A stretch of DNA of 64,000 nt from a virus (lineage: Duplodnaviria > Caudoviricetes). The notes beneath the pieces are model-generated. The model had not been told where the DNA came from. It searched no databases and saw nothing but the letters and a program-made list of their open reading frames with translations. Location: positions 22,369 through 86,368 of the IMG/VR virus record IMGVR_UViG_3300048121_000993. One strand, 5' to 3'. Positions 12,445 through 46,885 of this stretch are shown here, one piece after another. Made by a program: the position numbers and the translations under genes. How positions within the stretch are numbered: position 1 is the first letter of the stretch; each line of letters begins with the position of its first letter.

Positions 12445-12520
12445 GCCGGTATAGCTCAGTTGGTAGAGCAACTGATTTGTAATCAGTAGGTCGAGTGTTC
12501 GAATCATTCTACCGGCACCA
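12445..12520 (+). tRNA. tRNA-Thr(UGU)
   Basis: Cloverleaf, anticodon loop TT-TGT-AA, encoded CCA. Confidence 0.95.
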
Positions 12521-12625
12521 TATAAAAAGAGAATATAAAATACGAGAGAGAGGCACAGGACGCCCAACTGTAACAAGTTGTAATCGGAAATACAAATAGA
12601 CAGAATAAAAAAGAAAGATATATAA

Positions 12626-12841
12626 ATGAAACTTAGAAATGAGATGTTAAAAACAGCTATACAACACGCAGACGGTGAAATTCAATTACATAAAATGAAT
12701 GTTGAAGTATATTTAACCAATCCTGCAGGTATAGGCGAACACAGTGATGTAATGGAAGCTATTCAAGTTGAACTTGATAAGATGTCTACTGCACACGATC
12801 GCAAAGAAATGCTGACTAAGTATTTTAAATTGGGGGATTAG
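12626..12841 (+). CDS. conserved T4-like marine phage hypothetical
   Basis: NVEVYLTNPAGIGEHSD motif; stop codon lies inside the 5' end of tRNA-Ala. Confidence 0.7.
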   Translation: MKLRNEMLKTAIQHADGEIQLHKMNVEVYLTNPAGIGEHSDVMEAIQVELDKMSTAHDRKEMLTKYFKLGD

Positions 12842-12907
12842 CTCAGCTGGGAGAGCGTCTGGTTTGCATCCAGAAGGTCAGCAGTTCGATCCTGCTATCC
12901 TCCACCA
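12832..12907 (+). tRNA. tRNA-Ala(UGC)
   Basis: Cloverleaf, G3:U70, loop TT-TGC-AT, CCA. Confidence 0.95.
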
Positions 12908-12915
12908 AAAACACA

Positions 12916-12942
12916 AAAGAGAGCCAATGGCTCTCTTTTTTT
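12916..12942 (+). terminator. intrinsic terminator
   Basis: aaaaGAGAGCC-aat-GGCTCTCtttttt. Confidence 0.8.
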
Positions 12943-12956
12943 GACTAAATAATTGT

Positions 12957-13499
12957 ATGCGTATAGGACTTACACAACGAGTATTTGAACACAACAATCA
13001 ATCATATGATGCAACAGATCAAGATTGGTACACATATTTTGATGACCATGAGATTATACCCATACCAAATCATCCACAAAACTTTGTAAGTTTAGCAGAC
13101 AGTTTAGACTTGTTAGTTATTACCGGCGGCAATGCTCCAAGTGAGCGTGTTAAAACAGAACTACAACTAGTTCGTGCTATGATGGATAATGCTAAACCTA
13201 TATTAGGAGTTTGCCATGGAGCATTTTTCTTAACTGAACTGTTTGGCGGCAAAGTTGTTGAATGCAGTGGACATCATAATACTGTACATAATGTTACAAT
13301 GGATAATGCTACAGTACAGGTAAACAGTTTCCACAATTTACAGATAAAAAATCCACCAGAGGTTGCTAAAGTCTTAGCAGTAGACGAAGATGGGTTTTGC
13401 GAAAGTTGGACACATGGTACTATTGGTGCAGTTGTTTGGCATCCTGAACGTGGAAATATATCAATACCAAACGATATAAAACTATTGTTAAATTTATAA
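12957..13499 (+). CDS. class I glutamine amidotransferase-like (peptidase C26/PuuD-like)
   Basis: ITGG, LGVCHG (nucleophile Cys), VNSFH, WHPE. Confidence 0.85.
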   Translation: MRIGLTQRVFEHNNQSYDATDQDWYTYFDDHEIIPIPNHPQNFVSLADSLDLLVITGGNAPSERVKTELQLVRAMMDNAKPILGVCHGAFFLTELFGGKVVECSGHHNTVHNVTMDNATVQVNSFHNLQIKNPPEVAKVLAVDEDGFCESWTHGTIGAVVWHPERGNISIPNDIKLLLNL

Positions 13500-13684
13500 T
13501 AACATAAGATAAATAATTATGTAGCAAAGAGCTTTGCTACTCATCGACTGATTCACATGTGTATAACAGAGCTGTTATATAATCTAAGGTGTGACTCATT
13601 TATTCCCTTTATATAAAAAGAATAAATGTTTTATTCATGGTTCACACAAGTGAACTTACATTAAGTCAAATGGAGAATATTACA

Positions 13685-14386
13685 ATGACTACAGCAACAC
13701 AATTCGTAGAACAACTACGTAAAGATAACGAAGCACTTTTCGAAGCTTCTAAAATGAACGTGAAAGCGTATTTCGAAAGCAAAGACAATTCAATGGAAGC
13801 TCTAGTAGAGCACTTCACAGGTAGAATGGTTAACGAGAGAATGAACATGGTTGAAATCTCACGTCAAGTAGCTAACATGCCTGCTGATGCAGACCCAATT
13901 GAATTACAAAACCTATCTAAGCAAGCGATGGACGAAGCAATCCACTTCCGTATGGTAAAAGAATGCATCGAAAAAATCACTGGTGAAGAATTAGACGTAG
14001 CGAAAGCTATGGCTGATGAAGCAGCTAAGCCAACGGCAAAAGGTGCAGATTTACTAGAAGCTTATGAGGCATCTTCTGATGCGGCAGCACTTGCAGTTTA
14101 CCAAATGGTAGCTGAAGGTCGTGCAGCAGCAGTATGGTCACAAATGGCTGAATCAATTGAAGATTCATTCATTGCTAAGTCTTATGCCAAAATTGCAAAA
14201 GACGAAGGTTTTCACTCAACTATCGGTGAAATGAAACTAGAATCAATCGCAACAACACCAGAAGTTCAAGCACACGTGCTTAACATCGTTGACGGTATGC
14301 GTAAAGACTTGTTTGATGTATCTTGTGCAAACACAACTACAGCAGCAGGTTCTAAAGAACTAGTAGCAGAAGCTTACGGTTGGTAA
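13685..14386 (+). CDS. ferritin-like diiron-carboxylate protein
   Basis: Two E...ExxH units (ERMN / DEAIH; EGRA / DEGFH); GGAG RBS before ATG 13685. Confidence 0.75.
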   Translation: MTTATQFVEQLRKDNEALFEASKMNVKAYFESKDNSMEALVEHFTGRMVNERMNMVEISRQVANMPADADPIELQNLSKQAMDEAIHFRMVKECIEKITGEELDVAKAMADEAAKPTAKGADLLEAYEASSDAAALAVYQMVAEGRAAAVWSQMAESIEDSFIAKSYAKIAKDEGFHSTIGEMKLESIATTPEVQAHVLNIVDGMRKDLFDVSCANTTTAAGSKELVAEAYGW

Positions 14387-14407
14387 TCTTTACTAAACAG
14401 TAGTATT

Positions 14408-14442
14408 AACCCAGTATACTTAATTGTGTACTGGGTTTTTTT
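14408..14442 (+). terminator. intrinsic terminator
   Basis: aaCCCAGTATAC-ttaatt-GTGTACTGGGttttttt. Confidence 0.85.
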
Positions 14443-14507
14443 ACGATCAATGCTATTGACTTATGGCTAAATATGTTGTATAATATATATTAATCAGGGG
14501 ATAATTC

Positions 14508-15380
14508 ATGGACATATCCATTTATCAAAATAATACAGGAAGTGCACCAGCAATACATTGGTGGCTTTCGCAAGAAATTAACATAGGACCACAACTGTAT
14601 GATTTCAATACAGGCTATGGTCGTCCTACTGGACATCATGTAGGTGCTATTGTTATTGAAAACGAAGAAGCAGAACATAGTAAATTACATACGGAATCAC
14701 TAGCAATATTAGACAAATCGTTGCCAGGAATTGTTGATGTAATGTCGCCATTTAAACATGTTAAAGATCAATTTGATTTTTTTCTTTGGAGCAATTACAC
14801 GAACAATTTATCAAATCCAGACAATATCATTAAAGCAGATAAAACAATACTTGTAGATAATAGTTTAGAAGAACAATTATTTTTCTATATAAGTCAGTAT
14901 GCATTTGTTCGTTTGGAATTTTTAGATGATGTAGAACAACAAACGCAATCATGGGCAAACGAACATAACACTTCGGATTGGAAAGAAGTATGGTATGGAA
15001 AATATCATGATGAGTTTTTACAAGCGTTTAAAGATAAAAAATTAAAGTATATGTGGCAACTTAATTTTGCACACCACGATTTACTGGATCAGTTATCAAA
15101 AGGCAAAGAAGATATTAAACTAGTAGACGCAGATGACCACGATAGATTGTTTGAAGTTAAAAAACAAGAAGAAGACTTTTCAGATACATTATTTGCATAT
15201 GCTAATTCAGAAGCCGATTATATGGTAGTAGGCGATGATTGGTTTGAAGATTATGAAAGTATATTAGATTATACAGGAATAATGCAATCATTCAGATTAA
15301 AAAAATATGTAATTGATTATACTAGGTTATATCAACGTAGAAAAAAATTATATACAGATAAGTTTTCAAAGTATCTATAA
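14508..15380 (+). CDS. hypothetical, paralog of 16423..17349
   Basis: Shared APAIHWWL.Q..GPQLY, WSNY, WKE.WY, YMWQLNFAH. Confidence 0.8.
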   Translation: MDISIYQNNTGSAPAIHWWLSQEINIGPQLYDFNTGYGRPTGHHVGAIVIENEEAEHSKLHTESLAILDKSLPGIVDVMSPFKHVKDQFDFFLWSNYTNNLSNPDNIIKADKTILVDNSLEEQLFFYISQYAFVRLEFLDDVEQQTQSWANEHNTSDWKEVWYGKYHDEFLQAFKDKKLKYMWQLNFAHHDLLDQLSKGKEDIKLVDADDHDRLFEVKKQEEDFSDTLFAYANSEADYMVVGDDWFEDYESILDYTGIMQSFRLKKYVIDYTRLYQRRKKLYTDKFSKYL

Positions 15381-16015
15381 TGCCAAGAGTTAGACGATTT
15401 GTTGTATATGCATGTAGTTTTGGACTTAATGGTTCTATGGAACCATATGTAGAATTTAATAATCAGGATTTTTGTTGGCCACATGCAGTAGCAGAACATT
15501 ATAAATTGCATCTTAGTAATAGAAGTAGACCTGGAACAAATATAGATATGCAATTTCAAGATATATTAAATGATGTTCAAAAAAGTAATATTAGACCAGA
15601 TGATGTTGTATTGGTACAGTGGACACATGTTGACAGATATTTTAGTGAAAAAAGTGGAACATTATTTCCTACTTCAAAAGGCAAACATGTAGAATGGTTG
15701 TTTACAGATATTTACAATGAACAATTTGCGACTAATAAATTAATAAGTTATATGACAGCATTAGATGCCTTGGGAATTAATGTTTGTTACAGTTTTGCTG
15801 ATGGATATAAGCAAATTAAAGATAATATGAATTCTAGTCTACACAAAACATTTAAAAGTTTTAAATATGTTGGTTTCAATGACATTGGTTTATTTTGGCA
15901 TATCAGTGCAGATAAAACAGGTGATGTACTTACACATGATTGTTGTCATCCCAATGACAAAGGCCATAAATTTATAGCAGATAGATATATAAAAAGCATT
16001 AAGCCGTATGTATAA
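15380..16015 (+). CDS. SGNH-like hydrolase
   Basis: YACSF, VLVQWT, DCCHPNDKGH. Confidence 0.55.
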   Translation: MPRVRRFVVYACSFGLNGSMEPYVEFNNQDFCWPHAVAEHYKLHLSNRSRPGTNIDMQFQDILNDVQKSNIRPDDVVLVQWTHVDRYFSEKSGTLFPTSKGKHVEWLFTDIYNEQFATNKLISYMTALDALGINVCYSFADGYKQIKDNMNSSLHKTFKSFKYVGFNDIGLFWHISADKTGDVLTHDCCHPNDKGHKFIADRYIKSIKPYV

Positions 16016-16301
16016 ACCACTTCCTGCTTTCTTAACAATCAAAAAATCACCTATTCATAAACTAGGACTGTTTGCTTTGGAAGATATCAGCAAAGGAACA
16101 AATCTAGGAAGATCGCATTTTGTAGTACAAGATGAATTTGTTCGTATGCCCTTGGGCGGATTTGTAAATCATTCAGATAACCCTAATGTTAGAATAACAA
16201 GAGAAAAAGGTACAAGATTTTTTCAGTTACTTGTAATTAATGATATTAAATCAGGCGAAGAGTTAGTTGCAAAATATCTTAATAAAGATGGAAATTATTA
16301 A
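16008..16301 (+). CDS. minimal SET-domain protein
   Basis: SPIHKLGLFA, FVNHSDNPN, DIKSGEELVAKY. Confidence 0.85.
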   Translation: MYKPLPAFLTIKKSPIHKLGLFALEDISKGTNLGRSHFVVQDEFVRMPLGGFVNHSDNPNVRITREKGTRFFQLLVINDIKSGEELVAKYLNKDGNY

Positions 16302-16329
16302 CAAGATAAATAAAGTATATACATAATAA

Positions 16330-16405
16330 TCCTCAGTAGCTCAGTTGGTAGAGCAACGGACTGTTAATCCGTTTGTCGTTGGTTCGAGCCCAGCCTGGGG
16401 AGCCA
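16330..16405 (+). tRNA. tRNA-Asn(GUU)
   Basis: Cloverleaf, loop CT-GTT-AA, G73, CCA. Confidence 0.95.
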
Positions 16406-16422
16406 AACTTAGAAACAAATAA

Positions 16423-17349
16423 ATGAACATAGCAATATATCAGTCAGTGAATGCACATGCACCAGCAATACATTGGTGGCTAGCACAGGACCCACGATTT
16501 GGCCCACAATTATATATGTGGGTAGCAAATTCAAAAGAAGATTTAACAAGCATTGTTGAGGAAATGAGAGAACCTACATTTCCTGGCCAAGATATATCAG
16601 CAGAGTTATATGATGTTCATCAAGAAACTCTTAGAGAAATGGAAAATAAAAAAGCAGTAGACGGAGTAGTAGATTGTACTTCTACTTATTTTAATTTTAC
16701 AAAAAACTACAAACACCCAGTCTGGAGTAATTACTTTGGAGCAACTTATGATCATACGAGTACTATAGCATGTGATAAACTTATATTTGCTGAAGCAACG
16801 GTAGAAGATAGTGTTATGTATTATGTTACACAGTATGCATTTAATAATCTCGATTTAGCTGCGATAGAAGAGCATTGTCAAGTATGGTGGACAGATCATA
16901 AACTAATGAACGGTGAAATATTAGACAATTGGAAAGAAATATGGTACAGAGATTATCATAATCAATGCATACAAGATTTCCATGATGGTAAATTGCAATA
17001 CATGTGGCAATTAAATTTTGCACATTGGGATTTGCACCATGCATTAGCCAATGGACTTAATGGATTTGTATTAAACTATTCAATGGAAAGATTGTTTAAC
17101 GAGAAATATCAACGAACTACTAGCGATTTAAAAGCAGAAGCTCACCAAATAAAATATGTAAAAGATAATAACATTGATCATTTGTGTGTCGGTACATATT
17201 GGTTTAATAACATTGATACTATACTTTCTTATCTTGGAGTTGAGAATAGTGATATATTAATACAATCAGCTGAACAGTATAAAAAAGAATTCATTAGGAT
17301 CAATACAGCATACAAAGAAATACTTAATAAATACTACAAAGGAAATTAA
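16423..17349 (+). CDS. hypothetical, paralog of 14508..15380
   Basis: Shares the motifs listed for 14508. Confidence 0.8.
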   Translation: MNIAIYQSVNAHAPAIHWWLAQDPRFGPQLYMWVANSKEDLTSIVEEMREPTFPGQDISAELYDVHQETLREMENKKAVDGVVDCTSTYFNFTKNYKHPVWSNYFGATYDHTSTIACDKLIFAEATVEDSVMYYVTQYAFNNLDLAAIEEHCQVWWTDHKLMNGEILDNWKEIWYRDYHNQCIQDFHDGKLQYMWQLNFAHWDLHHALANGLNGFVLNYSMERLFNEKYQRTTSDLKAEAHQIKYVKDNNIDHLCVGTYWFNNIDTILSYLGVENSDILIQSAEQYKKEFIRINTAYKEILNKYYKGN

Positions 17350-17352
17350 ATT

Positions 17353-17814
17353 ATGAATAGAAACATAGGTAGAGGATTAATTGTAATAGGAATGCTGATG
17401 TTAGGATTCCTTTTTGCAAATACAACATCAGCTAAAGAAGTTGATATGGTTGTTTACGACTTTGAAATAACCAGAGTAATTGACGGAGATACCGTAGCCT
17501 TTAGAGCAGACTTTTTGCCAGAGCCACTTAAACAAGAACTAAGCATTCGTGTTTACGGAGTTGACACACCTGAAAAGAGTTGGAGAGCAGAATGTGAATC
17601 TGAGGCAGCATGGGGCGAACAAGCAAGTCAATTTACCAAAGACCAATTAAATGGTGCAACAGTTATACAAGTAGCCATATACAAATGGGATAAGTTTGGT
17701 GGGCGTGTGTTAGGAGATATTATCATTGACGGTAAGAGTCTAAGACATATGCTTATTGAAAATGGATTTGCACGTGAATATTATGGTGACAAAAAAGAAT
17801 CCTGGTGTGCCTGA
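17353..17814 (+). CDS. thermonuclease (SNase-like), with N-terminal signal/TM segment
   Basis: RVIDGDT, RVYGVDTPE, DKFGGRVLG. Confidence 0.85.
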   Translation: MNRNIGRGLIVIGMLMLGFLFANTTSAKEVDMVVYDFEITRVIDGDTVAFRADFLPEPLKQELSIRVYGVDTPEKSWRAECESEAAWGEQASQFTKDQLNGATVIQVAIYKWDKFGGRVLGDIIIDGKSLRHMLIENGFAREYYGDKKESWCA

Positions 17815-18451
17815 ATATACAAATCACTCTATTGATTTTGCATTAACAACATACTGTCAAGCAAAGTGTCGCAGTTGTGCGAGAACTAACCAATACACTG
17901 GCGAGAAAGAATCTTGGCTACAATTAAAACACATGGATTTAGATGTGTTCAGACAGACATTAGAATCATCTCCTAATGTACATATTGCAGATATTGAATT
18001 TTGCGGAGAATTTGGTGATCCTATGATGCATCCTCAAATTGACAAGTTTATAGAAACTGCATTAGAATTTGCACCATCTGTTAGAATATCAACAAACGGT
18101 GGCTTACGAACTCCAGACTGGTATGAGTCTATTGCAAAGAAATATAAAAACAGATTAGAAATTAATTTTGCAATAGATGGGGCTACACATGATGTTAATT
18201 GGATGTATAGAGAAGGAGTCGATTGGCACCGAGCAATAGATAATATGACTAGTTATATGTCTGCAGGTGGATGGGGCAGCTGGTGGTTTATAATATTTGA
18301 ATGGAATTGGCACCAAATACCAGAGGCTAATAGTTTGGCAAATGATATAGGTATAGAATTAATGGTACGATACAATAACAGAGATTTTGGATTAATAACT
18401 CCAGAATCACGAATAAAAGCAGATGCAATAATTAAAGAACATGGATTATAA
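17807..18451 (+). CDS. radical SAM protein
   Basis: CQAKCRSC, FCGEFGDP, STNG; GTG start inferred. Confidence 0.85.
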   Translation: MPEYTNHSIDFALTTYCQAKCRSCARTNQYTGEKESWLQLKHMDLDVFRQTLESSPNVHIADIEFCGEFGDPMMHPQIDKFIETALEFAPSVRISTNGGLRTPDWYESIAKKYKNRLEINFAIDGATHDVNWMYREGVDWHRAIDNMTSYMSAGGWGSWWFIIFEWNWHQIPEANSLANDIGIELMVRYNNRDFGLITPESRIKADAIIKEHGL

Positions 18452-18453
18452 GC

Positions 18454-18837
18454 ATGAGTAAATACAATATAAGCTGTTTTGCAATAGAAGGTACTCGCAG
18501 AATGTGGGAAGTAGGACCAGATGGTTTTGTATGGCCTTGCTGTTATTTTGGTAATGCATGGGATAAGAGACTTATGATGCATGCAGATGAACTTGATGAT
18601 CCAATCGCGAAACAGTTAGCATCAAATAAACTAAATGATGAATCTGCACTGTTATTTGATGATCCAGTAATGTTACAACTAATGAAAGAAGATCCAAATT
18701 GGAACAATTTAGAATATCATTCATTAGAAGAAATAATTAACCACAAAATATATCAAACATATATTCATCCAACAGGGTGGGAAAGCGATAACCCACCATT
18801 AGTATGTGTAGATAATTGTAATAAATGCAAGACTTGA
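18454..18837 (+). CDS. stand-alone SPASM/twitch-like Fe-S domain
   Basis: C...VGPDGFVWPCCY...CVDNC, directly after the radical SAM gene. Confidence 0.7.
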   Translation: MSKYNISCFAIEGTRRMWEVGPDGFVWPCCYFGNAWDKRLMMHADELDDPIAKQLASNKLNDESALLFDDPVMLQLMKEDPNWNNLEYHSLEEIINHKIYQTYIHPTGWESDNPPLVCVDNCNKCKT

Positions 18838-18871
18838 CAAGTTACGAAAACTCGTCTATAATACATTTTAT

Positions 18872-18946
18872 GTTCGGTTCGTCTATCGGTTAGGACTCCA
18901 GGTTTTCATCCTGGCAAGAGGGGTTCGATTCCCCTACCGAATACCA
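18872..18946 (+). tRNA. tRNA-Glu(UUC)
   Basis: Cloverleaf, loop TT-TTC-AT, CCA; TTGACA-17-TATAAT just upstream. Confidence 0.93.
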
Positions 18947-25545: not shown

Positions 25546-25707
25546 TTGGATCAAGCGACTATAGAATTGTACGAACACAGAATTGATAATTGTGTTCGTA
25601 CTGCAAAACAAAATCCCAAAGACAGTTGGGCATATAATTTTTGGATGACAACTGCCGGAACACTTTTAAGAAAACTAACTAGGAGTACAAATGAAAAACT
25701 TAATTAA
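25546..25707 (+). CDS. possible small protein (53 aa, TTG start)
   Basis: Open frame filling the gap, GAGG upstream. Confidence 0.4.
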   Translation: MDQATIELYEHRIDNCVRTAKQNPKDSWAYNFWMTTAGTLLRKLTRSTNEKLN

Positions 25708-26836
25708 ATTACCAACTCTTTTTAAGCGTGATACAACTGGCAAGATTCGTATGTGGGAAGTTGAATATGCTGAAACTGATATTGCTGGAAGTGATAGGCA
25801 TTCAAGTGCAGGCACAAGAACAATCAGTGGTCTAGTTGATGGGCAAAAAGTCACTAGCGATTGGAATATGAGTACTCCAAAAAATGTTGGTAAAGTAAAT
25901 GAAACTACAAGTTTAAGTCAAGCAAAAGCTGAAGCCCAGGCATTATGGGATAAACGCATCGAAAAAGAGTATTTTGAAAACACAAAAGATGTTGACTCTT
26001 ATGAGCGATTCAAGCCAATGCTTGCACATGATTACACTAAGCGTCCACAAAGTGAAGGTTGGAGTCAACCTAAACTAGATGGAATCCGTTGTGTGGTTGA
26101 TAGTAGAGGTATGTGGACACGAGCAGGTAAGCCTATTACAAGTTGTCCTCATATTTGGGAATCACTAAAAGGTTATATGGAACAAAATCCACATCACATT
26201 TTAGATGGTGAACTTTACAATCATGAACTAAAAGCAAACTTTAATAAAATTACAAGTTTGGTTCGTAAGTTAAAAAGCACACCAGAAGATATGGCTGAAG
26301 CAAAAACTCTAGTTGAATATCATGTTTATGATATGTATGATAAATCAGCAACAGATATGAAGTTTACTAATCGTGTTAAACAAGCATATTGGACAAACAA
26401 CGATTATGTAAAAATTGTAAAAACTGATTACTGTGAATCACAAGATCAACTAGATGCATTGTACAGTGAATATATGGAACAAGGCTATGAAGGTCAAATG
26501 GTGCGTAATGATGCAACATATGACAACAAGCGTAGCAAAAATCTTCTAAAGCGTAAAGAGTTTAAAACTGAAGAATTTGATGTTATCCAAGTACTAGAAG
26601 GTAAAGGTAATTGGAGTGGATATGCTAAACGATTCGTATTGCGTGACAAAGAAGGTAAAGAATTTGGTAGTGGAGTTAGAGGTCAACAAGCACAATTAAA
26701 AGAATTGTGGGAGATGTTAAACACTGCTAAAGGAATGCCAAATTGGGCTACTTGCAGATACTTTGATTTAACACCAGACGGTGTTCCTAGGTTTCCAGTA
26801 ATCATTGATTACGGCTACGGAACACGACAAGATTAA
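25691..26836 (+). CDS. ATP-dependent DNA ligase
   Basis: QPKLDGIR (motif I), LDGELY, EGQMVR, LLKRK, PRFP. Confidence 0.92.
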   Translation: MKNLIKLPTLFKRDTTGKIRMWEVEYAETDIAGSDRHSSAGTRTISGLVDGQKVTSDWNMSTPKNVGKVNETTSLSQAKAEAQALWDKRIEKEYFENTKDVDSYERFKPMLAHDYTKRPQSEGWSQPKLDGIRCVVDSRGMWTRAGKPITSCPHIWESLKGYMEQNPHHILDGELYNHELKANFNKITSLVRKLKSTPEDMAEAKTLVEYHVYDMYDKSATDMKFTNRVKQAYWTNNDYVKIVKTDYCESQDQLDALYSEYMEQGYEGQMVRNDATYDNKRSKNLLKRKEFKTEEFDVIQVLEGKGNWSGYAKRFVLRDKEGKEFGSGVRGQQAQLKELWEMLNTAKGMPNWATCRYFDLTPDGVPRFPVIIDYGYGTRQD

Positions 26837-36699: not shown

Positions 36700-37798
36700 T
36701 CAAGACATTAAACTAGACTACAGTGACGTTTTAATTCGTCCAAAGCGTAGTACATTAAGTTCACGCAAACAAGTAAGACTTGAACGCAAGTTTAAATTTA
36801 GAAACAGCAGACACGAGTACGAAGGTATTCCTATTATGGCTGCTAACATGGATGGTGTTGGAACATTTGAAATGGCAGATGAACTTGCACAACAAAATAT
36901 ATTTACATGTTTAGTAAAAACATATTCAGTGGAAGAACTTGTAGATTTTTTTAACAATGATTATCCGGATAATAGAAGAACACAAAACATTGCTATGAGC
37001 ATTGGTACAGGAACAATAGACTTTGATAAGTTAGAAGCTGTGTATAATAAAGTAAGCAATAAACTAAAATATGTATGTATGGATATTGCAAATGGTTACA
37101 GTGATCACTTTGCACAACATGTTAAAAAAGTTCGTAATGCATTTCCTAATTTAGTAATTATAGCAGGTAATGTAGTAACCGGAGAGATGACAGAGGAGTT
37201 AATTTTAAATGGAGCAGACATCGTTAAAGTCGGAATTGGACCAGGAAGCGTGTGTACAACACGAATCCAAACAGGAGTCGGGTATCCGCAACTTAGTGCA
37301 GTCATTGAATGTGCAGATGCGGCACATGGACTTGGTGGACATATTATCGCTGATGGGGGCTGTAACTCTAGTGGTGATGTGGCTAAAGCATTTGCTGGCG
37401 GCGCCGATTATGTAATGCTAGGCGGTATGCTTGCAGGACATGATCAAGGTGGCGGCGAAGTTATTAGTAAGATGTATGCAACCAATGAATGGCTTACAGC
37501 AGAAAAGCCAGTACTTGAACAAAAACAGTTTGTGGCTTTTTACGGAATGAGCAGTGATGCTGCAAACACAAAACACTTTGGAGGACTAAAAGACTATCGT
37601 GCAAGCGAAGGACGAGAAGTATTAGTTCCATACAGAGGTGCAGTACAACACACCGTACAAGCAATCTTAGGTGGGTTGCGTAGTACCTGTACATATGCAG
37701 GTGCAATGAAACTTAAACAACTTAGTAAATGTACTACGTTTGTTCGCGTTAACAATCAGTTTAACAAAACATACGAAAGCACAACAACTAAGATTTAG
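36689..37798 (+). CDS. guaC: GMP reductase
   Basis: [42 protein letters not shown]. Confidence 0.95.
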
Positions 37799-37869
37799 CT
37801 ATGTTGTACATGCATAGCGTCTTTGCAGCAGATAAGTAAGTGATTCTGCGGTATTATAGATAAATAGAT

Positions 37870-38090
37870 GTGTAATAAAAATGGCACAATGTTGTGTTAT
37901 AGTTACATGTACAAAGTAGTACAGAGCGACCTCGGCTCAGAAAAAAAGAGCGGCAGTTAGTGCCACGCTAACTGACTCTGGGAAAGACCAGGGCATAACC
38001 CATGCCTTACAAGCGATACATTATGAGGTATCGTGGTAGCGGCCAGGAGAGACTGGCAAATAACGGATGCTTTCCCAAAAACATCCACAC
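37870..38090 (+). ncRNA. unassigned structured RNA / leader
   Basis: About 8 consecutive hairpins, GC-richer than the surrounding genome, plus GGGAAAG/CTTTCCC long-range complement. Confidence 0.6.
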
Positions 38091-38109
38091 ATATAACGGA
38101 GAATATAAA

Positions 38110-38316
38110 ATGGCTAACACTTTTTTTAGTGCATGGTCGGGATTATTCAATGGCTCACGTAGAAGTCGTGTGGCTTACAATAACACCCTAATGACTTATG
38201 CAAAAACAGAATATGGTTCTGATTGGCAATATGCCTACAACTATATGCTAGAACACAAAGGATCTGCACCAAAGATGGGTCTTGCAGATATCAATATCAA
38301 GGCAGCAGTAAAATGA
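38110..38316 (+). CDS. small protein
   Basis: GGAG RBS; YAKTEYGSDWQYAY. Confidence 0.7.
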   Translation: MANTFFSAWSGLFNGSRRSRVAYNNTLMTYAKTEYGSDWQYAYNYMLEHKGSAPKMGLADINIKAAVK

Positions 38317-38498
38317 CAACAACATTAATATACAAACAAACATGTAGTGTTTGTGAAAAAATTAAACAAGCATCATTAAAAGTAATGATGGCTATTTGGT
38401 CATTTGGTGAATCGGCAGGTCGTGCAAGAGCAGCCGCTGAATTACATAGACAAGGCTACACAGAAGAAGCAAAAAAACTAATGCTGGAGAGTAGATAA
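38313..38498 (+). CDS. small protein
   Basis: ATGA overlap; GRARAAAELHRQGY.EEAK. Confidence 0.7.
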   Translation: MTTTLIYKQTCSVCEKIKQASLKVMMAIWSFGESAGRARAAAELHRQGYTEEAKKLMLESR

Positions 38499-38689
38499 TG
38501 ATTAATACTATAACAAACAAATTAAGTTGGTTAAAACGTGCTTATACAAACAGTCAAGGACGCAGAGCAACTGAAAAGGCTTTGTCGGAATTAAACGACT
38601 TTGAATTAAATGATATTGGATTATGCAGAGGCGACATTAGATCAGTTGCTCGCGGTGATCTTAAAGCATATAAAAGATCAGTTAAGTAA
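38498..38689 (+). CDS. DUF1127 (YjiS-like) small protein
   Basis: RRATEKALSELNDFELNDIGLCRGDI matches the DUF1127 pattern L..L.D..L.DIG..R.DI. Confidence 0.85.
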   Translation: MINTITNKLSWLKRAYTNSQGRRATEKALSELNDFELNDIGLCRGDIRSVARGDLKAYKRSVK

Positions 38690-38823
38690 TGTTTAAAAAG
38701 TTTTTAAAAGCAATGGAATACAGAAGTTATTGCATGAGCATCAGGCAACTTCGTCAATTAGGCGAACATGAAAAAGCTAATGAAATTTCTGAATATAAAC
38801 ATAAGATGTATAACACATTTTAA
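38689..38823 (+). CDS. small protein (44 aa)
   Basis: TAATG coupling; QLRQLGEHEKANE resembles the 38313 protein. Confidence 0.6.
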   Translation: MFKKFLKAMEYRSYCMSIRQLRQLGEHEKANEISEYKHKMYNTF

Positions 38824-38855
38824 TTTAGTGTAGTTTTAATTGCATAAATAGTTGT

Positions 38856-39833
38856 ATGAGTAAAGTACATCTATTAACAGAAATAATAATAAAATTACAG
38901 AACCTTAGTACTCAGGATGAGAAACTAAAGCTTCTGCATACCTATAATAAAGAAATCATACTACAACGTATAATTACTATAGCGTATAATCCTTGGATTG
39001 ATTTTGGAATGAAAGATTTTGTGCCAAAGCGTTTAGGTAAAAAGTTTGGTATGGGTTTGAGTAAATTCCTACATATTTTAACAGACATCATAGACGAAAA
39101 ATATGATGAAAGAGAAAAGAACTTTTCTTGTCAAATGGCTATGCAACATATAGATGAGCGTGATGCTGAACTATTTGTTAATTTACTAAGACAAGATCTG
39201 GACTTAGGACTCGAATTAGAAACAATAAATGCAGTATGGCCTGGATTAATAATGATTTATCCAATAAGCTCGCCTACTGTAGCAGACTATAAAACATTTA
39301 ATAAATATCCAGCCGCAGTACAACCTATTAGTAGAGGTTTACGAGTTAATGTAATTGTACATAAAGATATAGTTACTTACAGAGACAAAGAAGGTAACAA
39401 TATCGAAGGTTGGAATATACACGACGAACAGTTTGTAAATTTAGCACAAAACAATAGTACAGTATTTGATGGTCACGCAGTTGTGGTTAATGGTACAACT
39501 ATTGTCGAGACTGATAATCAAAAAGTATTAGAAGCAGACCCGGAAAACATCAGATTTAATTTTTGGGATGTTATTAGATATGATGGATTTATTACTGGTA
39601 CAGATACTCGTATAGGTTATAATTGGCGTAATAATGGATTAGAACATATGATTATACTTGCTATAGATAAGAATAAAACACCTTGCTATGACATTGTAAA
39701 GGCTGATCTAGTAGGAAGTGATGAACAATTAGCGTTAACTGTTGAAAAGTATAAATCTAAATGTGTTATTAAAGCATTAGACGGCACATGGGTACATGGA
39801 ACTGATCCAACACAAGTTATTTACGAGTCTTAA
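38856..39833 (+). CDS. degenerate DNA ligase-like protein (T4 gp30-type)
   Basis: Ligase-type N-terminal domain; motif I reads QPISRGLR (no Lys); VFDG and FWDV retained; no OB domain. Confidence 0.65.
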   Translation: MSKVHLLTEIIIKLQNLSTQDEKLKLLHTYNKEIILQRIITIAYNPWIDFGMKDFVPKRLGKKFGMGLSKFLHILTDIIDEKYDEREKNFSCQMAMQHIDERDAELFVNLLRQDLDLGLELETINAVWPGLIMIYPISSPTVADYKTFNKYPAAVQPISRGLRVNVIVHKDIVTYRDKEGNNIEGWNIHDEQFVNLAQNNSTVFDGHAVVVNGTTIVETDNQKVLEADPENIRFNFWDVIRYDGFITGTDTRIGYNWRNNGLEHMIILAIDKNKTPCYDIVKADLVGSDEQLALTVEKYKSKCVIKALDGTWVHGTDPTQVIYES

Positions 39834-42021: not shown

Positions 42022-42432
42022 ATGGCATATAGCGAAAAAGTGCTAGACCATTACAATAATCCAAGAAATGTAGGTAAGTTCGACCCCAAGGAAGATAATA
42101 TCGGAACTGGAATGGTAGGCGCACCTGCATGTGGTGATGTAATGCGTTTACAAATTAAAGTAACAGAAGATGGCATTATTGAAGATGCAAAATTCAAAAC
42201 ATACGGTTGTGGAAGTGCAATTGCTAGTTCAAGTATGGTAACAACTATGCTTAAAGGTATGACACTAGATCAAGCACAAGAGATTAAAAACACAACAATA
42301 GTAGAAGAACTTGCATTGCCACCAGTTAAGATACACTGTAGCGTATTGGCAGAAGATGCCATTAAAGCCGCAGTTAGAGATTATTCTGGAAAAAAACAAC
42401 AAATAAACGCAAAACCGGTTGACATAACTTAA
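42022..42432 (+). CDS. iscU: Fe-S cluster scaffold protein
   Basis: GAPACGD, GCGSAIASS, LPPVKIHCS. Confidence 0.96.
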   Translation: MAYSEKVLDHYNNPRNVGKFDPKEDNIGTGMVGAPACGDVMRLQIKVTEDGIIEDAKFKTYGCGSAIASSSMVTTMLKGMTLDQAQEIKNTTIVEELALPPVKIHCSVLAEDAIKAAVRDYSGKKQQINAKPVDIT

Positions 42433-42454
42433 TTTTGTGTTATCATAAATAATA

Positions 42455-42741
42455 CGCAATGTTGAAATTTACTCAACGCTGATTCAGGACTCCGGGGCGG
42501 TACCGGACAACTCCACCATAAACACATTGTTACTAGTAGTTCATAGTGTGTTTTTGATGGGGTTGAAATAGGTTCGACTGGGTAGCTAATAGGTAAAGGG
42601 AGTTGCCGGGATGTAAGCGCCGTTACCGCGAACAAACTTTATAATTGCAAATGACAATTATTCGCCAGAAATGGCATTAGCAGCCTAATTTAGGTATGTA
42701 GGGGTTTTTGCAAGTTGAGCCTGGCAACAGAATCAACTTGC
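42455..42741 (+). ncRNA. ssrA: two-piece (circularly permuted) tmRNA
   Basis: Acceptor piece ends CAACTCCACCA (42518) with T-loop GGCGGTA; intervening hairpin; coding piece starts GGGGTTGAAATAGGTTCGAC (42559); tag 42647..42688 ANDNYSPEMALAA*; terminal CCTGGCAACAG hairpin. Confidence 0.92.
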
Positions 42742-42795
42742 TACTATAATGCAATTAGCGTTAAAGTATGTAATAATAAAAATCAAGGAAATATT

Positions 42796-43465: not shown

Positions 43466-43542
43466 GGACCCGTAGCTCAGTTGGATAGAGCATTGGTTTG
43501 CGGAACCAAAGGCCAGAGGTTCGAATCCTCTCGGGTCCGCCA
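43466..43542 (+). tRNA. tRNA-Arg(GCG)
   Basis: Cloverleaf, loop TT-GCG-GA, D-loop A20, CCA. Confidence 0.9.
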
Positions 43543-43543
43543 A

Positions 43544-44902
43544 TTAGAATTTTTGCCAAGGAAACAATTTAGGCAAGTATTCAAATTTAGGATGATTGTT
43601 CATGCTTTGTATCACAAATCCTTTGGCTATAAATTTATCTTTATAATTGTCAAAGAATTTAATATAGTCTGCTTCTGTATTTAATCTAATATTTTTACTG
43701 TATAATGTTGCATTTACTTCATAGTTAAAAGCATTACTAACATCAATAAAAATCTTTTCATCATCTTCTATTCTATGCATTGAATCTATTAAGTGCATAG
43801 TCATCGTGTTAATGTCCATTAAGTCAATCTCTTCAAATTGTAATAAAAAAGTTTTTGCAGTAGTATTCCACCATTCTTGAAATGGTTCACCTAAGGCATC
43901 TATATATGCATCTACTTCATCTAAAAAATCTGTACATGCAAAATGATGTCCTAATATTGGATTTTCTTCCATGTAATCTAAAACAAGTTGTTTCCAATTA
44001 CGACCATCCCAATTATTAAACATATAATTTTGCATATGTACTGCTAATGGATCAGCATCATAAAATACAAGTTCACCACCTGGTTTAAGATTTCTTATAT
44101 ATGCATTTGAAATAGGACTTATTCCTCCACAAGTACTGTATACAGAACTTGTAATTTGCTCTTGTACTTCTTTATCCAGTGTTTCGGTATTTGCTGCAAA
44201 CCATCTAGAAACCCATAACTGTTTTCCAATGCTATGTACTTTTTCATAATGATCTAAATTTTCACCATATACATATTCTTTACCTCGGCGCAGATCTTTA
44301 TTCCATATTCCTACTTTTTGATTATCTTGCATTGCTACATTAAGTAAATTATGACCAGCCCATTTGCCTACTGCATTTACTGTTTCGTTTGTAGCAGTAA
44401 TTGAAACTGGATTATATGTTTGCCAATCACTTAATGTTTCTTCACTTCTTTCAATGTTAGTTGCAGTCCATTCTACATTTTCTTCAAAGTCTCCAAATTC
44501 TGGCTTGCCTACACTAGCCCACCATTCCAAGTCTATCCACATTGTTTGTGGGTGTATTTGCCACCATGCGTCACCTCGGTCTAATATATGTCCTACAATT
44601 ACACAGTCTTTATATTCAGTATCCCAATATGGTTTAGATTTTTCTACAAAATTATTTAATATTATACCTTGCTTACACATTAATAGACCTTTAAATCCGG
44701 CATCTATTCCCTTATTACACAATTCAACAAAATCATCTGAAGATACCTGTGGTATGCGTCGATATTTAAAACTGTAAAAGTCTAATAAGTTTTGTGTAGT
44801 TCCTTCTACTGCTTTATCTATAATTCTATTGTTTAGTAACCAGCCTATGCCAGTCATTGGTGGTAGCTTATCCGGTGTATGTTCGAAGTTATAATGTTTC
44901 AT
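43544..44902 (-). CDS. hypothetical, paralog of 23273..24358 (possible methyltransferase-like C-terminal half)
   Basis: 452 aa; shared motifs; AAGGA RBS. Confidence 0.8.
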   Translation of the reverse strand: MKHYNFEHTPDKLPPMTGIGWLLNNRIIDKAVEGTTQNLLDFYSFKYRRIPQVSSDDFVELCNKGIDAGFKGLLMCKQGIILNNFVEKSKPYWDTEYKDCVIVGHILDRGDAWWQIHPQTMWIDLEWWASVGKPEFGDFEENVEWTATNIERSEETLSDWQTYNPVSITATNETVNAVGKWAGHNLLNVAMQDNQKVGIWNKDLRRGKEYVYGENLDHYEKVHSIGKQLWVSRWFAANTETLDKEVQEQITSSVYSTCGGISPISNAYIRNLKPGGELVFYDADPLAVHMQNYMFNNWDGRNWKQLVLDYMEENPILGHHFACTDFLDEVDAYIDALGEPFQEWWNTTAKTFLLQFEEIDLMDINTMTMHLIDSMHRIEDDEKIFIDVSNAFNYEVNATLYSKNIRLNTEADYIKFFDNYKDKFIAKGFVIQSMNNHPKFEYLPKLFPWQKF

Positions 44903-45102
44903 ATTTTTCCTTAAAAAAGTGTTGACTTAGTCATGTGTATGTCGTATAATGTATGCATTGTTGTTGGAATAGTCGATTTCATTAACAAAGTATATTACTA
45001 TTTATTATCTTAGGTAAACAGTATATATAAGATAAAATAAATAGTTGACAGAGATATGACTATTGTGTTATACTAATAACACTAAAACAAGGAAGAGCGG
45101 AT

Positions 45103-45336
45103 ATGATTAGTAGTAGACAAATTGTGGAAATCATCAAAGATGAAATGAACAAAGAAGAGAACAGCCAGGAAGTCCGTATGGCACTGAAAAAAGTTAAGGA
45201 ACGCATAGAGATTTTGGAAGAAATTGATTATGTGAATACAGTTAAACAACCTTATTTAGAAGAACCAACTAGTAAACAAAGTAAAGAAAAGCAAACAGCA
45301 GCACAAGCCTTTGAGGAATTATTTGGCTTAAAATAA
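45103..45336 (+). CDS. hypothetical protein
   Basis: After a TTGACA...TATACT promoter. Confidence 0.7.
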   Translation: MISSRQIVEIIKDEMNKEENSQEVRMALKKVKERIEILEEIDYVNTVKQPYLEEPTSKQSKEKQTAAQAFEELFGLK

Positions 45337-45518
45337 TGAATCTGGAATATAGTGAAATTGTTAACAAGATAGAAGTTTCGCAAGAATTAATAGAGGTGTT
45401 CAAAAGCCGTATCAAGCCAAGTGCTACTGGATACCTCTATACAACAATAAGCACACTAGAACAATATATAACAGAACTTGAAAAACAATTAGTAACAATG
45501 GAAAATAACAATGCTTAA
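45336..45518 (+). CDS. hypothetical protein
   Basis: TAATG coupling. Confidence 0.65.
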   Translation: MNLEYSEIVNKIEVSQELIEVFKSRIKPSATGYLYTTISTLEQYITELEKQLVTMENNNA

Positions 45519-45801
45519 ACTAAAAGATGTAAAATGGGACAACACAACAACTCCTACTGGAGTAGCAGCTACCATTGGTTTTGGCAATGAGTACAAAATA
45601 AGCATCATTCAAAATGATATATCATATGGTGGTGATAAAGGCTTGTACGAAATTGCAGTATTGCACAAAGATGAATTTACATCACTTCCTGGTATTACTA
45701 ATCCAAATGATACAGTCGCCGGCTATCTCACTGAAGATAGCGTTAATAACATCTTACTCAAGATGTACACTCTAACAAAAAGAACCCCTTTACAAATTTA
45801 A
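45511..45801 (+). CDS. conserved phage hypothetical
   Basis: SYGG..GLYEIAV...D.V.GYLT motif. Confidence 0.75.
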   Translation: MLKLKDVKWDNTTTPTGVAATIGFGNEYKISIIQNDISYGGDKGLYEIAVLHKDEFTSLPGITNPNDTVAGYLTEDSVNNILLKMYTLTKRTPLQI

Positions 45802-45810
45802 ACCAATTAT

Positions 45811-45887
45811 CCGCTCTTAGCTCAGCTGGATAGAGCAACTGCCTTCTAAGCAGTAGGTCACAGGTTCGAATCCTGTAGAGCGGGCCA
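45811..45887 (+). tRNA. tRNA-Arg(UCU)
   Basis: Loop CT-TCT-AA, CCA. Confidence 0.95.
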
Positions 45888-45918
45888 ACACAACCGAAGT
45901 AACAGAAAGAAGATTAAA

Positions 45919-46209
45919 ATGACAAGTTTTATAATTGACTGGTATAATGTAATAATGGATAGTGAAAAGAATCCATTAAGTAATATCAAAGATTTAAGAG
46001 TACGCCATATGGTGATGCAAATATTAGCATGGATGTGGTGCATAGTGTTTACTGCAATGACAGGTACTTGGATGTATCTAGGTGCTAACATACTAATACA
46101 CACATTACTATTAGGTGCAGTATGTTTAACAGTAGCAACATTTGAAGCAGCTAAACGCAAACCACAAATATTTTATACATTGCGTGGTGACGGCGGCGAA
46201 CACGAATAA
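45919..46209 (+). CDS. small membrane protein
   Basis: NPL..I.D..VRHMVMQILAWMWCIVF; two TM segments. Confidence 0.75.
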   Translation: MTSFIIDWYNVIMDSEKNPLSNIKDLRVRHMVMQILAWMWCIVFTAMTGTWMYLGANILIHTLLLGAVCLTVATFEAAKRKPQIFYTLRGDGGEHE

Positions 46210-46217
46210 GAATTAGT

Positions 46218-46301
46218 GCTCGCATGATGGAATGGTAGACATAACAGACTTAAAATCTGTGGCCGTAAGGCGTCCCGGTTCGAGTCCGGGTGCGAGTACC
46301 A
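46218..46301 (+). tRNA. tRNA-Leu(UAA)
   Basis: Loop CT-TAA-AA, long variable arm, CCA. Confidence 0.93.
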
Positions 46302-46312
46302 AAGAATAGTGT

Positions 46313-46387
46313 GGGACTGTAGCTTAGTGGTAGAGCAAGACGCTCATAACGTCCAGGTCGTTGGTTCGATCCCAACCAGTCCCACCA
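46313..46387 (+). tRNA. tRNA with CAU anticodon (Ile2 or elongator Met)
   Basis: Loop CT-CAT-AA; paired 1-72, so not an initiator; CCA. Confidence 0.9.
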
Positions 46388-46405
46388 TGAAAGAAGGAAC
46401 TATGT

Positions 46406-46630
46406 ATGTTTACAGTAGAAGAAGAATTCGATGAAAGCATTATAACAGTAATGGATACTAAAGAAAAGTTTCAAGATGTTAAAGTGTATTTCCAAGAAGA
46501 TGTTATTTACATTACACAATATAACGAAGAGTTTGACACTCATGATGTAGTGAAAGTATCAACTGAAATGTGGGAAATGTTAATTGAAGGATACAATCGT
46601 ACACAAGGAACATACATAATTACTAAATAA
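46406..46630 (+). CDS. hypothetical protein
   Basis: AAGGA RBS; lies between tRNAs. Confidence 0.7.
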   Translation: MFTVEEEFDESIITVMDTKEKFQDVKVYFQEDVIYITQYNEEFDTHDVVKVSTEMWEMLIEGYNRTQGTYIITK

Positions 46631-46718
46631 GGACAGTTGGCTGAGTGGTCGAAAGCACCGGTTTACTAAACCGACGAAGGGCAACCTTCCTAGGGTTCGA
46701 ATCCCTAACTGTCCGCCA
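46631..46718 (+). tRNA. tRNA-Ser(ACU)
   Basis: Long variable arm, G73, loop TT-ACT-AA, CCA. Confidence 0.88.
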
Positions 46719-46729
46719 GTTACTGGTAA

Positions 46730-46804
46730 TGGAACGTAGCATAATGGTAATGCACCGCTTTTTGGTAGCGTAGAGTATAGGTTCGAGTCCTATCGTTCCA
46801 GCCA
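46730..46804 (+). tRNA. tRNA-Gln(UUG)
   Basis: U1-A72, loop TT-TTG-GT, CCA. Confidence 0.9.
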
Positions 46805-46811
46805 CAGTTAT

Positions 46812-46885
46812 AGGGGTGTAGTGAAATGGTATCACGGCGGATTCCAAATCCGCAAGTAGGAGTTCGATTCTCTTCACCTTTGCCA
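46812..46885 (+). tRNA. tRNA-Trp(CCA)
   Basis: Loop TT-CCA-AA, G73, CCA. Confidence 0.92.

Follow-up and report, generated by a model that had tools for sequence, protein, structure and literature searches.

CsrB/RsmZ-type RNAs titrate protein through repeated GGA loop motifs, T4 gene 32, regA and gene 43 provide autoregulatory translational operators of phage mRNAs, and lambda-type nut boxB hairpins are bound by arginine-rich peptides. Hairpin RNAs that accompany a gene for a DUF1127 protein are described for the CIN1 loci of Alphaproteobacteria, in which the cuckoo/CcsR/NfeR RNAs (Rfam ar14 and RSs0680) are co-transcribed with the DUF1127 gene (PMC8034643). According to the same study, each cuckoo/CcsR RNA has two hairpins with an anti-Shine-Dalgarno (anti-SD) motif, CCUCCUCCC, in each loop. 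The DUF1127 protein CcaF1 of Rhodobacter binds the hairpin RNA CcsR1, a change of four nucleotides in the loop abolishes this binding, and the tandem CcsR1-4 RNAs are bound by more than one CcaF1 protein; in S. meliloti such RNAs seem to originate in the 5' untranslated region (UTR) of the DUF1127 gene (PMC8034643). The subject of the present report is a leader RNA of a virus of the Caudoviricetes (IMG/VR record IMGVR_UViG_3300048121_000993), of which a stretch of 64,000 nucleotides, positions 22,369 to 86,368 of the record, was analysed and is termed the window. An earlier note, made from the letters of this DNA alone, had described an unassigned multi-hairpin RNA with a loop-loop pairing that leads four small proteins including DUF1127. 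The region 37872-38109 of the window is a non-coding 5' leader ahead of a row of tiny genes, and its core, 37974-38087 of the + strand, is a conserved RNA by a covariance model. It is nearly certain that this leader is a genuine conserved structured element. It represents an RNA family that is absent from Rfam, and its hairpins P1, P2, P3a and P3b are real.

Like the CIN1 RNAs, the phage leader has tandem small hairpins with conserved loops, which in the window are on one transcript with the gene of a small arginine-rich DUF1127 protein, and in both cases the RNA can lie in a 5' UTR. However, the loops of the phage leader are purine-rich (NANAGA) and do not contain CCUCCUCCC. CCTCC is not present in 37860-38110, and the only CU-rich sites of the leader are CCUC in hairpin H2 and UUUCCC in element P4. 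Neither ar14 nor RSs0680 is matched, either in 37700-38900 at E<=10, in the window at the gathering score, or in eight relatives at E<=1. In addition, the leader is carried by a giant phage and not by a bacterium, it is not followed by a terminator, and DUF1127 is encoded in 48 of 96 operons, whereas another small protein without a name, here called family A, is the constant neighbour. Judged from these sequence comparisons, the phage RNA is outside the cuckoo/CcsR family, because its loops are different, it has no Rfam match and DUF1127 is dispensable.

Like the CsrB/RsmZ-type RNAs, the phage leader shows the same short loop motif on several hairpins. However, GGA is not invariant, since it is absent from the CAAAGA and CC-AAA-GG loops, and the phage element is an mRNA leader, not a free-standing small RNA (sRNA) gene. 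Like the T4 operators, it is a structured leader of a phage mRNA whose binder may be encoded on that transcript. Unlike them, its core ends 8-30 nt upstream of the SD sequence without overlapping it, and the transcript is apparently late, not early or middle. Like boxB, it follows closely on a phage promoter and has a short hairpin, the purine loop of which is A-rich and GNRA-like, and arginine-rich small proteins are encoded nearby. Unlike boxB, it has hexaloops, in which the first base is G, A or C, and has several copies of them, and neither a boxA-like partner nor downstream terminators were identified.

Identification of the leader RNA family

For the covariance model (R1), 12 seeds without gaps were combined with a structure drawn by hand. 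When 100 sources (698 kb), including the window, were searched with this model, 99 matches were obtained, at most one per source, and L020 is the sole source without a match. The window match spans 37974-38087 with 42 bits (E 3.4e-8). It is the single match in the 86-kb record from which the window is taken, with no second copy, and one copy of the leader is present in each of five large relatives, including the complete 342.6-kb genome G001. In total, 111 distinct leaders were collected. Unless otherwise noted, leader-wide counts refer to 107 or 111 distinct leaders, covariation refers to 95 distinct rows of a 99-row alignment, and gene counts refer to 96 leaders with at least 700 nt of downstream sequence.

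Rfam 15 gives only tRNAs and a two-piece transfer-messenger RNA (tmRNA) in the 64-kb window at the gathering score, and none of these matches is at the leader. In 37700-38900, four weak unrelated matches are obtained at E<=10, the best of which is PK-PYVV with 20.9 bits against a gathering score of 65. The leaders of the eight relatives do not match any family at E<=1. Thus, the RNA is indeed unassigned, as the earlier note had it, and its hairpins covary as described below. No published account of this leader was found in the literature on DUF1127 in phages, on DUF3563 and on cuckoo sRNA/DUF1127.

Secondary structure and covariation of the leader

The + strand of 37860-38115 folds with -75.7 kcal/mol (z -4.64), and none of 200 shuffles is as good, while the - strand of the same region has a z value of only -2.23. 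The GC content increases to 0.54 at 37950-38049 from a background of ~0.33. When the sequence of 37500-39200 was read directly, all stems named in the earlier note were found at their places. The parts of the leader are as follows.

37859-37866, + strand: octamer GATAAATA, a T4-late-type promoter with G at the first position
37881-37888 / 37893-37900, + strand: hairpin H1, ATGGCACA/TGTGTTAT, at the 5' end of the leader; clade-specific; present in the minimum-free-energy fold
37908-37923, + strand: hairpin TGTAC-AAAGTA-GTACA, present in the minimum-free-energy fold and missing from the list of the earlier note; ATAC..GTAT in relatives
37924-37949, + strand: hairpin H2, GAGC-GACCTCG-GCTC (arms 37924-37927/37935-37938), followed by the A-run AGAAAAAAAGA
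37954-37960 / 37968-37974, + strand: hairpin H3, CAGTTAG/CTAACTG, an insertion particular to the subtype of the window
37978-37991, + strand: hairpin P1, CTGG-GAAAGA-CCAG, the first hexaloop hairpin of the conserved core
37992-38006, + strand: hairpin P2, GGCAT-AACCC-ATGCC
38007-38013, + strand: junction TTACAAG, conserved (T86, T80, A97, C70, A92, A91, G87 of 99 rows)
38013-38034, + strand: hairpin P3a, GCGATAC-ATTATGAG-GTATCGT
38042-38057, + strand: hairpin P3b, GCCAG-GAGAGA-CTGGC, the second hexaloop hairpin
38065-38086, + strand: element P4, GGATGCTTTCCCAAAAACATCC (GGATG/CATCC), nearly invariant in sequence; other subtypes carry GGTATTGCTTTCCTCAAGCATCC
38098-38101, + strand: SD sequence GGAG of the first open reading frame (ORF1)

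In the model-fitted alignment, 96.6% of the cells pair, as compared to 80.1% in shuffles, and 21 of the 30 pairs are changed on both sides. None of 500 shuffles reaches any of these measures, and the pairing decreases to 33-49% when the partners are slid. Changes on both sides are found at 4 of the 4 pairs of P1, 5 of 5 of P2, 7 of 8 of P3a, 4 of 5 of P3b and 1 of 8 of P4. This result supports the local hairpins P1, P2, P3a and P3b, for which the earlier note had proposed a covariation test. A separate listing of stems, leader by leader, agrees with the compensated stems of this test. P4 was not accepted as a proven hairpin, because just one of its eight pairs is altered on both sides and its sequence is near invariant. 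G-U pairs are frequent (51 rows have GU at columns 106/174, and 45 rows have it at columns 185/240), and their abundance indicates that the + strand is the functional strand.

The common order of the leader is P1 (4-5 bp, loop GANAGA), P2 (4-5 bp, variable loop), the junction UUACAAGYGAUUGAC, one to three further hairpins, a near-invariant 21-nt element (GGUAUUGCUUUCCUYAAGCAUCC; GGAUGCUUUCCCAAAAACAUCC in the subtype of the window), an A-rich spacer of varying length, GGAG and the start codon, with GGAG or GGA located 4-12 nt 5' of ATG in the collected leaders. At its third position, the P1 loop has A (52 of the 99 rows), T (42), G (2) or C (2). The further hairpins usually follow a UGAC, with up to three of them arranged in tandem from the junction to P4, and have the loop NAAAGA (AAAAGA, CAAAGA, GAGAGA, GAUAGA), CC-AAA-GG or a fixed CCGGG-GAAGU-UCCGG. 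The arms of P3a are, for example, GCGACAC/GTGTCGT and GTGGCGC/GCGTCGT in relatives. When the 111 distinct leaders were folded locally, the loops were GAAAGA (60), AAAAGA (40), GATAGA (39), GAGAGA (21), CAAAGA (16), CC-AAA-GG (43) and GAAGT (47), and several distinct compensated stems were found under every loop type except GAAGT. NANAGA-type hairpins number one in 5 leaders, two in 42, three in 62 and four in 2. The hallmark of the family is this array, in which one to four hairpins, in most cases two or three, carry a NANAGA-type loop that is closed by G-C.

This array is not constant in composition. P3a is missing in some leaders (L167, L191), and the lineage of the complete genome G001 retains P1 in a weak form, a single hairpin and the 21-nt element, with P2 and the junction lost. 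The parts 5' of P1 vary by subtype, and H1 and H3 of the window are specific to its subtype. The arms of H1 differ yet still pair in close relatives (CAATAC/GTGTTG and AACACA/TGTGTT, read by eye). H2 and the A-run are present in 35 of 107 leaders, with the arms GAGC/GCTC in 27 and AAGC/GCTT in 8, which represents one compensatory change. H3 is missing in the other subtypes, in which GAGTGGCAC joins P1 directly. P1 and P3b are the only G[NANAGA]C hairpins of at least 4 bp on both strands of the 64-kb window, with a shuffle mean of 1.4. The idea of a regulon was rejected, since no further hairpin of this kind is present in the window and no second model match in the record. A link between hairpin type and gene content was also rejected, since no clean rule emerged from a comparison that is confounded by relatedness.

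The most specific claim of the earlier note was the pairing between the P1 loop region and the P4 loop. GGGAAAG (37980-37986) is exactly complementary to CTTTCCC (38070-38076) in the window, so that the complementarity stands, but the pairing does not covary and is not a conserved feature. The GGANAG:CUUUCC helix is paired in 87.2% of the cells, against 87.7% in shuffles, where 12-13 rows of the subtype of the window are shifted by one column in the alignment at the cost of one of the six long-range pairs. This level is reached by 452 of 500 shuffles, and the covariation score is 0.044 against 0.050 in shuffles. Its central pair does not form in 45 of 94 sequences, and the column that would pair with the third loop base of P1 is T in 92 of 99 rows. 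GGATAGAC is found together with an unchanged TGCTTTCCTC or TGCTTTCCTT in 34 distinct rows. The nested long-range fold of the window, which is the minimum (-39.3 kcal/mol), and the fold with P1 and P4 (-36.8 kcal/mol) are within 2.5 kcal/mol of each other. According to these fold energies, the GGGAAAG:CTTTCCC pairing is thermodynamically possible and could matter in the subtype of the window, but it is not conserved family-wide. A helix between the junction and P4 (AAGYGAU:AUUGCUU) was likewise rejected, because it is paired in 85.6% against 86.0% in shuffles and does not covary.

Coding potential, promoter and transcription

The earlier note had named translation of the region, as an extension of an ORF from 38002, as an outcome that would speak against an RNA. 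Among 107 leaders, the ATG of such an extension is missing in 43, out of frame in 47 and followed by in-frame stops in 12, and the extension is open and in frame in just 5. The leaders of close relatives differ by indels of +4 and -1 nt.

The octamer at 37859-37866 would place the transcription start at ~37872, by analogy with T4, of which the late promoter consensus TATAAATA is located at -13 to -6 (PMC1524935). When 160 nt upstream of P1 were searched, 93 of 107 leaders had [TG]ATAAATA, at 29-113 nt 5' of P1, where the background is 0.018 per 160 nt. TATAAATA is present in 66 and GATAAATA in 27 of the 107. In the window, GATAAATA occurs at 10 sites (10205, 13508, 16305, 32702, 34867, 37859, 41992, 58996, 61577 and 62023), all of which are on the + strand and intergenic, while the canonical TATAAATA is depleted (2 found against 13.4 expected). 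One of the GATAAATA sites is directly 5' of a tRNA-Asn gene and another is upstream of the tmRNA. A T4 gp55 query gives weak matches in two of four records (the relatives G001 and G004), and an ORF of G001 is a late sigma factor by PHROGs (phrog_12791, E 3.8e-80). A late sigma factor is not matched in the 86-kb, 24%-complete record of the window, and the control genomes of phrog_12791 are likewise without a match.

In 37600-39000, no terminator-like site is present on the + strand and three are present on the - strand. A terminator-like hairpin with a T-run at 37950-37974 of the - strand is the mirror of the + strand A-run AGAAAAAAAGA and the adjacent hairpin. The SD sequence is partly paired in folding models, with a mean P(unpaired) of 0.33 over 107 leaders. 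Occlusion of the SD sequence was not retained as a candidate, because model values alone are behind it.

A run search on 37800-38900 gave 20 rows that hold part of this region, from 18 studies, and 14 of the rows are on record as RNA. Contigs from all four RNA libraries analysed (four studies) span the leader and the ORFs, and the leader is bridged to ORF1 by contigs at 38060-38261 (X2, X4) and 37903-38455 (X6). The contig depth in the four runs is 11-2065 over 37939-38790 and 0-9 beyond 38862, where these contigs report presence in RNA only and the depth is summed over strains and gives no ends, strand or level. The bin 37797-37867 is uncovered in all four runs, and 37726-37796 is uncovered in X2, X4 and X6. 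A 588-nt contig of X6 opens with adapter letters ~12 nt before 37903. Contigs of X2 and X4 join the end of the leader (38093) to the start of the family D gene (38689), and these joins probably come from relatives with another gene order behind the leader.

The microprotein operon

Downstream of the leader, the four coupled small ORFs of the earlier note were confirmed, with the overlaps ATGA, TAATG and TAATG.

38110-38316, + strand: ORF1, 68 aa, unnamed family A (AKTEY..DW..AY)
38313-38498, + strand: ORF2, 61 aa, family B (FGESAGRARAAAEL..GY..EAK)
38498-38689, + strand: ORF3, 63 aa, DUF1127
38689-38823, + strand: ORF4, 44 aa, family D (MFKKFLKAMEYRSYC..)

ORF3 is a DUF1127 protein as had been assigned, since it scores 32.5 bits (E 7.2e-8) with PF06568, for which the cut-off is 23.3. 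ORF1, ORF2 and ORF4 have no match above the cut-off in Pfam, NCBIfam and PHROGs. The motif L..G..E.A that was thought to be common to two of the ORFs did not hold up, since BLASTP aligns ORF2 with ORF4 over 8 residues only at E 0.32.

The first ORF behind the leader belongs to family A in 93 of 96 cases (86 with the strict motif and 7 evident variants), and in 66 of 70 loci that were retrieved by the RNA pattern alone. Within 1.8 kb 3' of these 96 leaders, the families encoded include DUF1127 (48 leaders), family B (47), family F (29), family D (25) and DUF3563 (20). Thus, the earlier proposal of a regulatory module of an RNA and small proteins is retained as far as a small-protein operon led by an RNA is concerned, but its emphasis on DUF1127 is not, because family A and not DUF1127 is the constant neighbour. 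Family A comprises 318 clusters in 5.8 billion proteins, all of which are unnamed and none of which has a Pfam domain. Its structural model consists of a short and a long helix, with a mean predicted local distance difference test score (pLDDT) of 66.4, and is too simple for a fold search. The DUF1127 model (pLDDT 70.5) has no significant neighbour in the PDB by Foldseek (best E 4.9).

DUF3563 (PF12086, cut-off 26.9) is found at L027:2508-2681 (32.5), L042:2542-2712 (32.8) and L026:11828-12013 (27.5), but not in the window. Members of DUF1127 and DUF3563 have a common C-terminal tail, N.NL[RK]G[WSHF]V (L013:3180-3437, L027:2508-2681, L026:11828-12013, L120:2149-2391 and others), and some DUF1127 proteins end in the C-terminus of family F (YE.GDHY.RGK..ATW.GKAH). 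By their sequences, these modular tails of the microproteins look like a common docking peptide. Distant homologues of family A in L020 and L021 (93-95 kb) are located behind a (G)ATAAATA octamer without the leader core, which indicates that the protein can exist without the RNA. In one lineage (L048:3013-3121), the leader is directly 5' of a family F gene (87 aa) instead of family A. The sequence CATAAATA, which is promoter-like, precedes the gene behind the microprotein operon. This gene (38856-39833, E 2.1e-22) is the second in the window of the ATP-dependent DNA ligase family phrog_114, the other being at 25691-26836 (E 1.7e-62).

Distribution and carrier phages

In IMG/VR, an ORF1 query retrieves 21 loci, and a profile of the ORF1 family retrieves 292 relatives, 80 of which were kept. 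An RNA pattern over the core matches 67 stretches, 41 of them distinct, of which ~25 are true copies and 16 are apparent chance matches inside genes, and the 21-nt element alone is present in at least 120 stretches. By blastn with 37700-38900 and with the leader of a relative, and by tblastn with ORF1, no match is obtained in 50,697 INPHARED phage records, a set from which close records may be missing. Among 185,579 species genomes, family A is present in one locus, on a 20-kb contig of a metagenome-assembled genome, in which the leader is also present. The carrier records are up to 342.6 kb in length, which points to a lineage of uncultured marine jumbo phages; the 86-kb record of the window is estimated to be 24% complete.

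The genes of the window include those for a ribonucleotide reductase, a Lon-like protease, a ClpX-like ATPase and radical-SAM proteins. The two-piece (permuted) tmRNA is located at 42398-42779, has the tag ANDNYSPEMALAA and matches the Rfam families alpha_tmRNA (116.9 bits) and tmRNA_permuted (124.8 bits). A tmRNA of this alphaproteobacterial type may hint at an alphaproteobacterial host. Eleven tRNA genes are located at 12445-18946 and 43466-46885, among which ARAGORN reports a tRNA-Ser with the unusual anticodon ACT (46631-46718) and one tRNA-Arg with the anticodon GCG.

Discussion

By analogy with CcaF1 and the CcsR RNAs of its own transcript, which are the nearest documented case, the leader may be a cis-acting protein-binding element, for which a product of the operon would be the most economical binder. 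This explanation is favoured tentatively, with somewhat less than an even chance of being correct. The leader would be transcribed late from the T4-late-type octamer, and its core would be a modular array of independently folding hairpins. The NANAGA hexaloops closed by G-C and the near-invariant 21-nt CU-rich element would be repeated recognition sites for a protein. The candidate binder would be the operon's own product, either family A or, where it is present, DUF1127, and its binding would set the stability and/or the translation of the operon mRNA in cis. The presence of conserved loops on free stems, a variable copy number and a single-stranded-looking tail suggests repeated recognition sites and not one pocket, and the variable hairpin number argues against a fixed aptamer. 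In a wider version, which is possible but rather doubtful, the hexaloop array would be the cognate RNA of the giant-phage microproteins, namely family A alone or together with DUF1127, DUF3563 and GRARAA proteins. It would then form a self-contained late switch, either as an autoregulatory operator or as a decoy for a host RNA-binding factor, with the hairpin number setting its capacity.

Several results weigh against binding of the leader by an operon product. Half of the leaders have no DUF1127 gene in the 1.8 kb downstream, and such a gene is rare where the hexaloop hairpins are most numerous (2 of 11 leaders that have two extra AGAC hairpins, 1 of 5 that have three). The DUF1127 protein YjiS showed no association with RNA (PMC11707872), and PhoR-binding DUF1127 proteins are reported to act without RNA (PMC12501420). 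The published likeness of DUF1127 to Smaug/SAM was not reproduced by the above PDB comparison. Family A has a two-helix model of only moderate confidence, and the residues that are invariant in it, being acidic or aromatic, are untypical of RNA binders. The distance of 8-30 nt between the end of the core and the SD sequence is variable, which is unusual for a translational operator. Finally, the covariation was counted on an alignment that, being fitted to the model, favours structure.

Alternatively, the leader or a fragment cut from it may act in trans as an sRNA or a sponge, which either titrates a host or phage RNA-binding protein through its loops or pairs with SD regions through CU-rich loops (GACCUCG in H2, UUUCC(C/U) in P4), like CcsR/cuckoo. 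Repeated identical loops, as found here, are the design of protein sponges. The variable distance between the core and the SD sequence suggests a self-contained module, and several studies have the leader in their RNA libraries. The CcsR RNAs, which have anti-SD loops, derive from a UTR of DUF1127 genes, either the 3' or the 5' one (PMC8034643). However, neither a terminator nor a defined 3' end is located between the core and ORF1, into which the RNA-library contigs continue from the leader. Most subtypes have one CU-rich loop, H2 being restricted to 35 of 107 leaders, the motif CCUCCUCCC is absent, and neither a second target-like site nor a further hexaloop hairpin is present in the 64-kb window, so that an action in trans is considered unlikely. 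It is distinctly less probable again that the leader functions without a specific partner and ligand, by shielding the 5' end from mRNA decay or by enhancing translation. Stable hairpins directly behind the promoter, A-rich spacers and stems that may vary freely are consistent with such a function, but protection does not need conserved loops, a conserved junction and a conserved 21-nt element across fully diverged stems. A riboswitch-like element, in which the core of P1, P2, the junction and P4 binds a metabolite or ion and would control ORF1 by toggling from the hairpin fold to the long-range GGGAAAG:CUUUCCC fold and back, is slightly more improbable than that. The conserved unpaired nucleotides (junction TTACAAG, loops, 21-nt element), the two window folds of similar energy and the partly paired SD sequence would suit it. 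In contrast, the architecture is not fixed, as the one to four hexaloop hairpins, the loss of P2 and the junction in the G001 lineage and the loss of P3a in L167 and L191 indicate, and neither the long-range pairing nor the junction:P4 helix covaries. In addition, the + strand has no terminator in 37600-39000, and what the genes behind the leader encode are microproteins and neither enzymes nor transporters.

Phage HK022 has put RNAs that work in cis on RNA polymerase, and the phage leader has a position immediately behind a promoter, several hairpins in the nascent RNA and a single copy per genome that would be compatible with processive antitermination of this kind. Nevertheless, the + strand has no terminator-like site downstream in 37600-39000 and the promoter-like CATAAATA is located before the next gene, which makes antitermination very improbable. 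It is scarcely conceivable that the region is not an RNA of the + strand but a translated extension of the 38002 ORF or a feature of the - strand, such as the hairpin with a T-run at 37950-37974. In the window itself, the 38002 ORF stays open and in frame, and the - strand has three terminator-like sites. However, the extension is rarely open and often lacks its ATG among the leaders, and indels are present among close relatives, while on the - strand the abundant G-U pairs would become C-A and the fold is less favourable than that of the + strand.

A protein-binding leader that acts in cis thus remains the favoured explanation. The leader represents an RNA family that is widespread and occurs in RNA libraries but has no Rfam entry, and it ties a hairpin array to an operon of proteins of less than 90 residues, including DUF1127 and DUF3563, in ~340-kb phages without a cultured representative. 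Identification of the binder would provide a function for these microprotein families and a compact, loop-specific RNA-protein pair for the toolbox. It would also permit a test of whether the partnership of DUF1127 and hairpin RNA in Rhodobacter is a general principle that has been adopted by phages.

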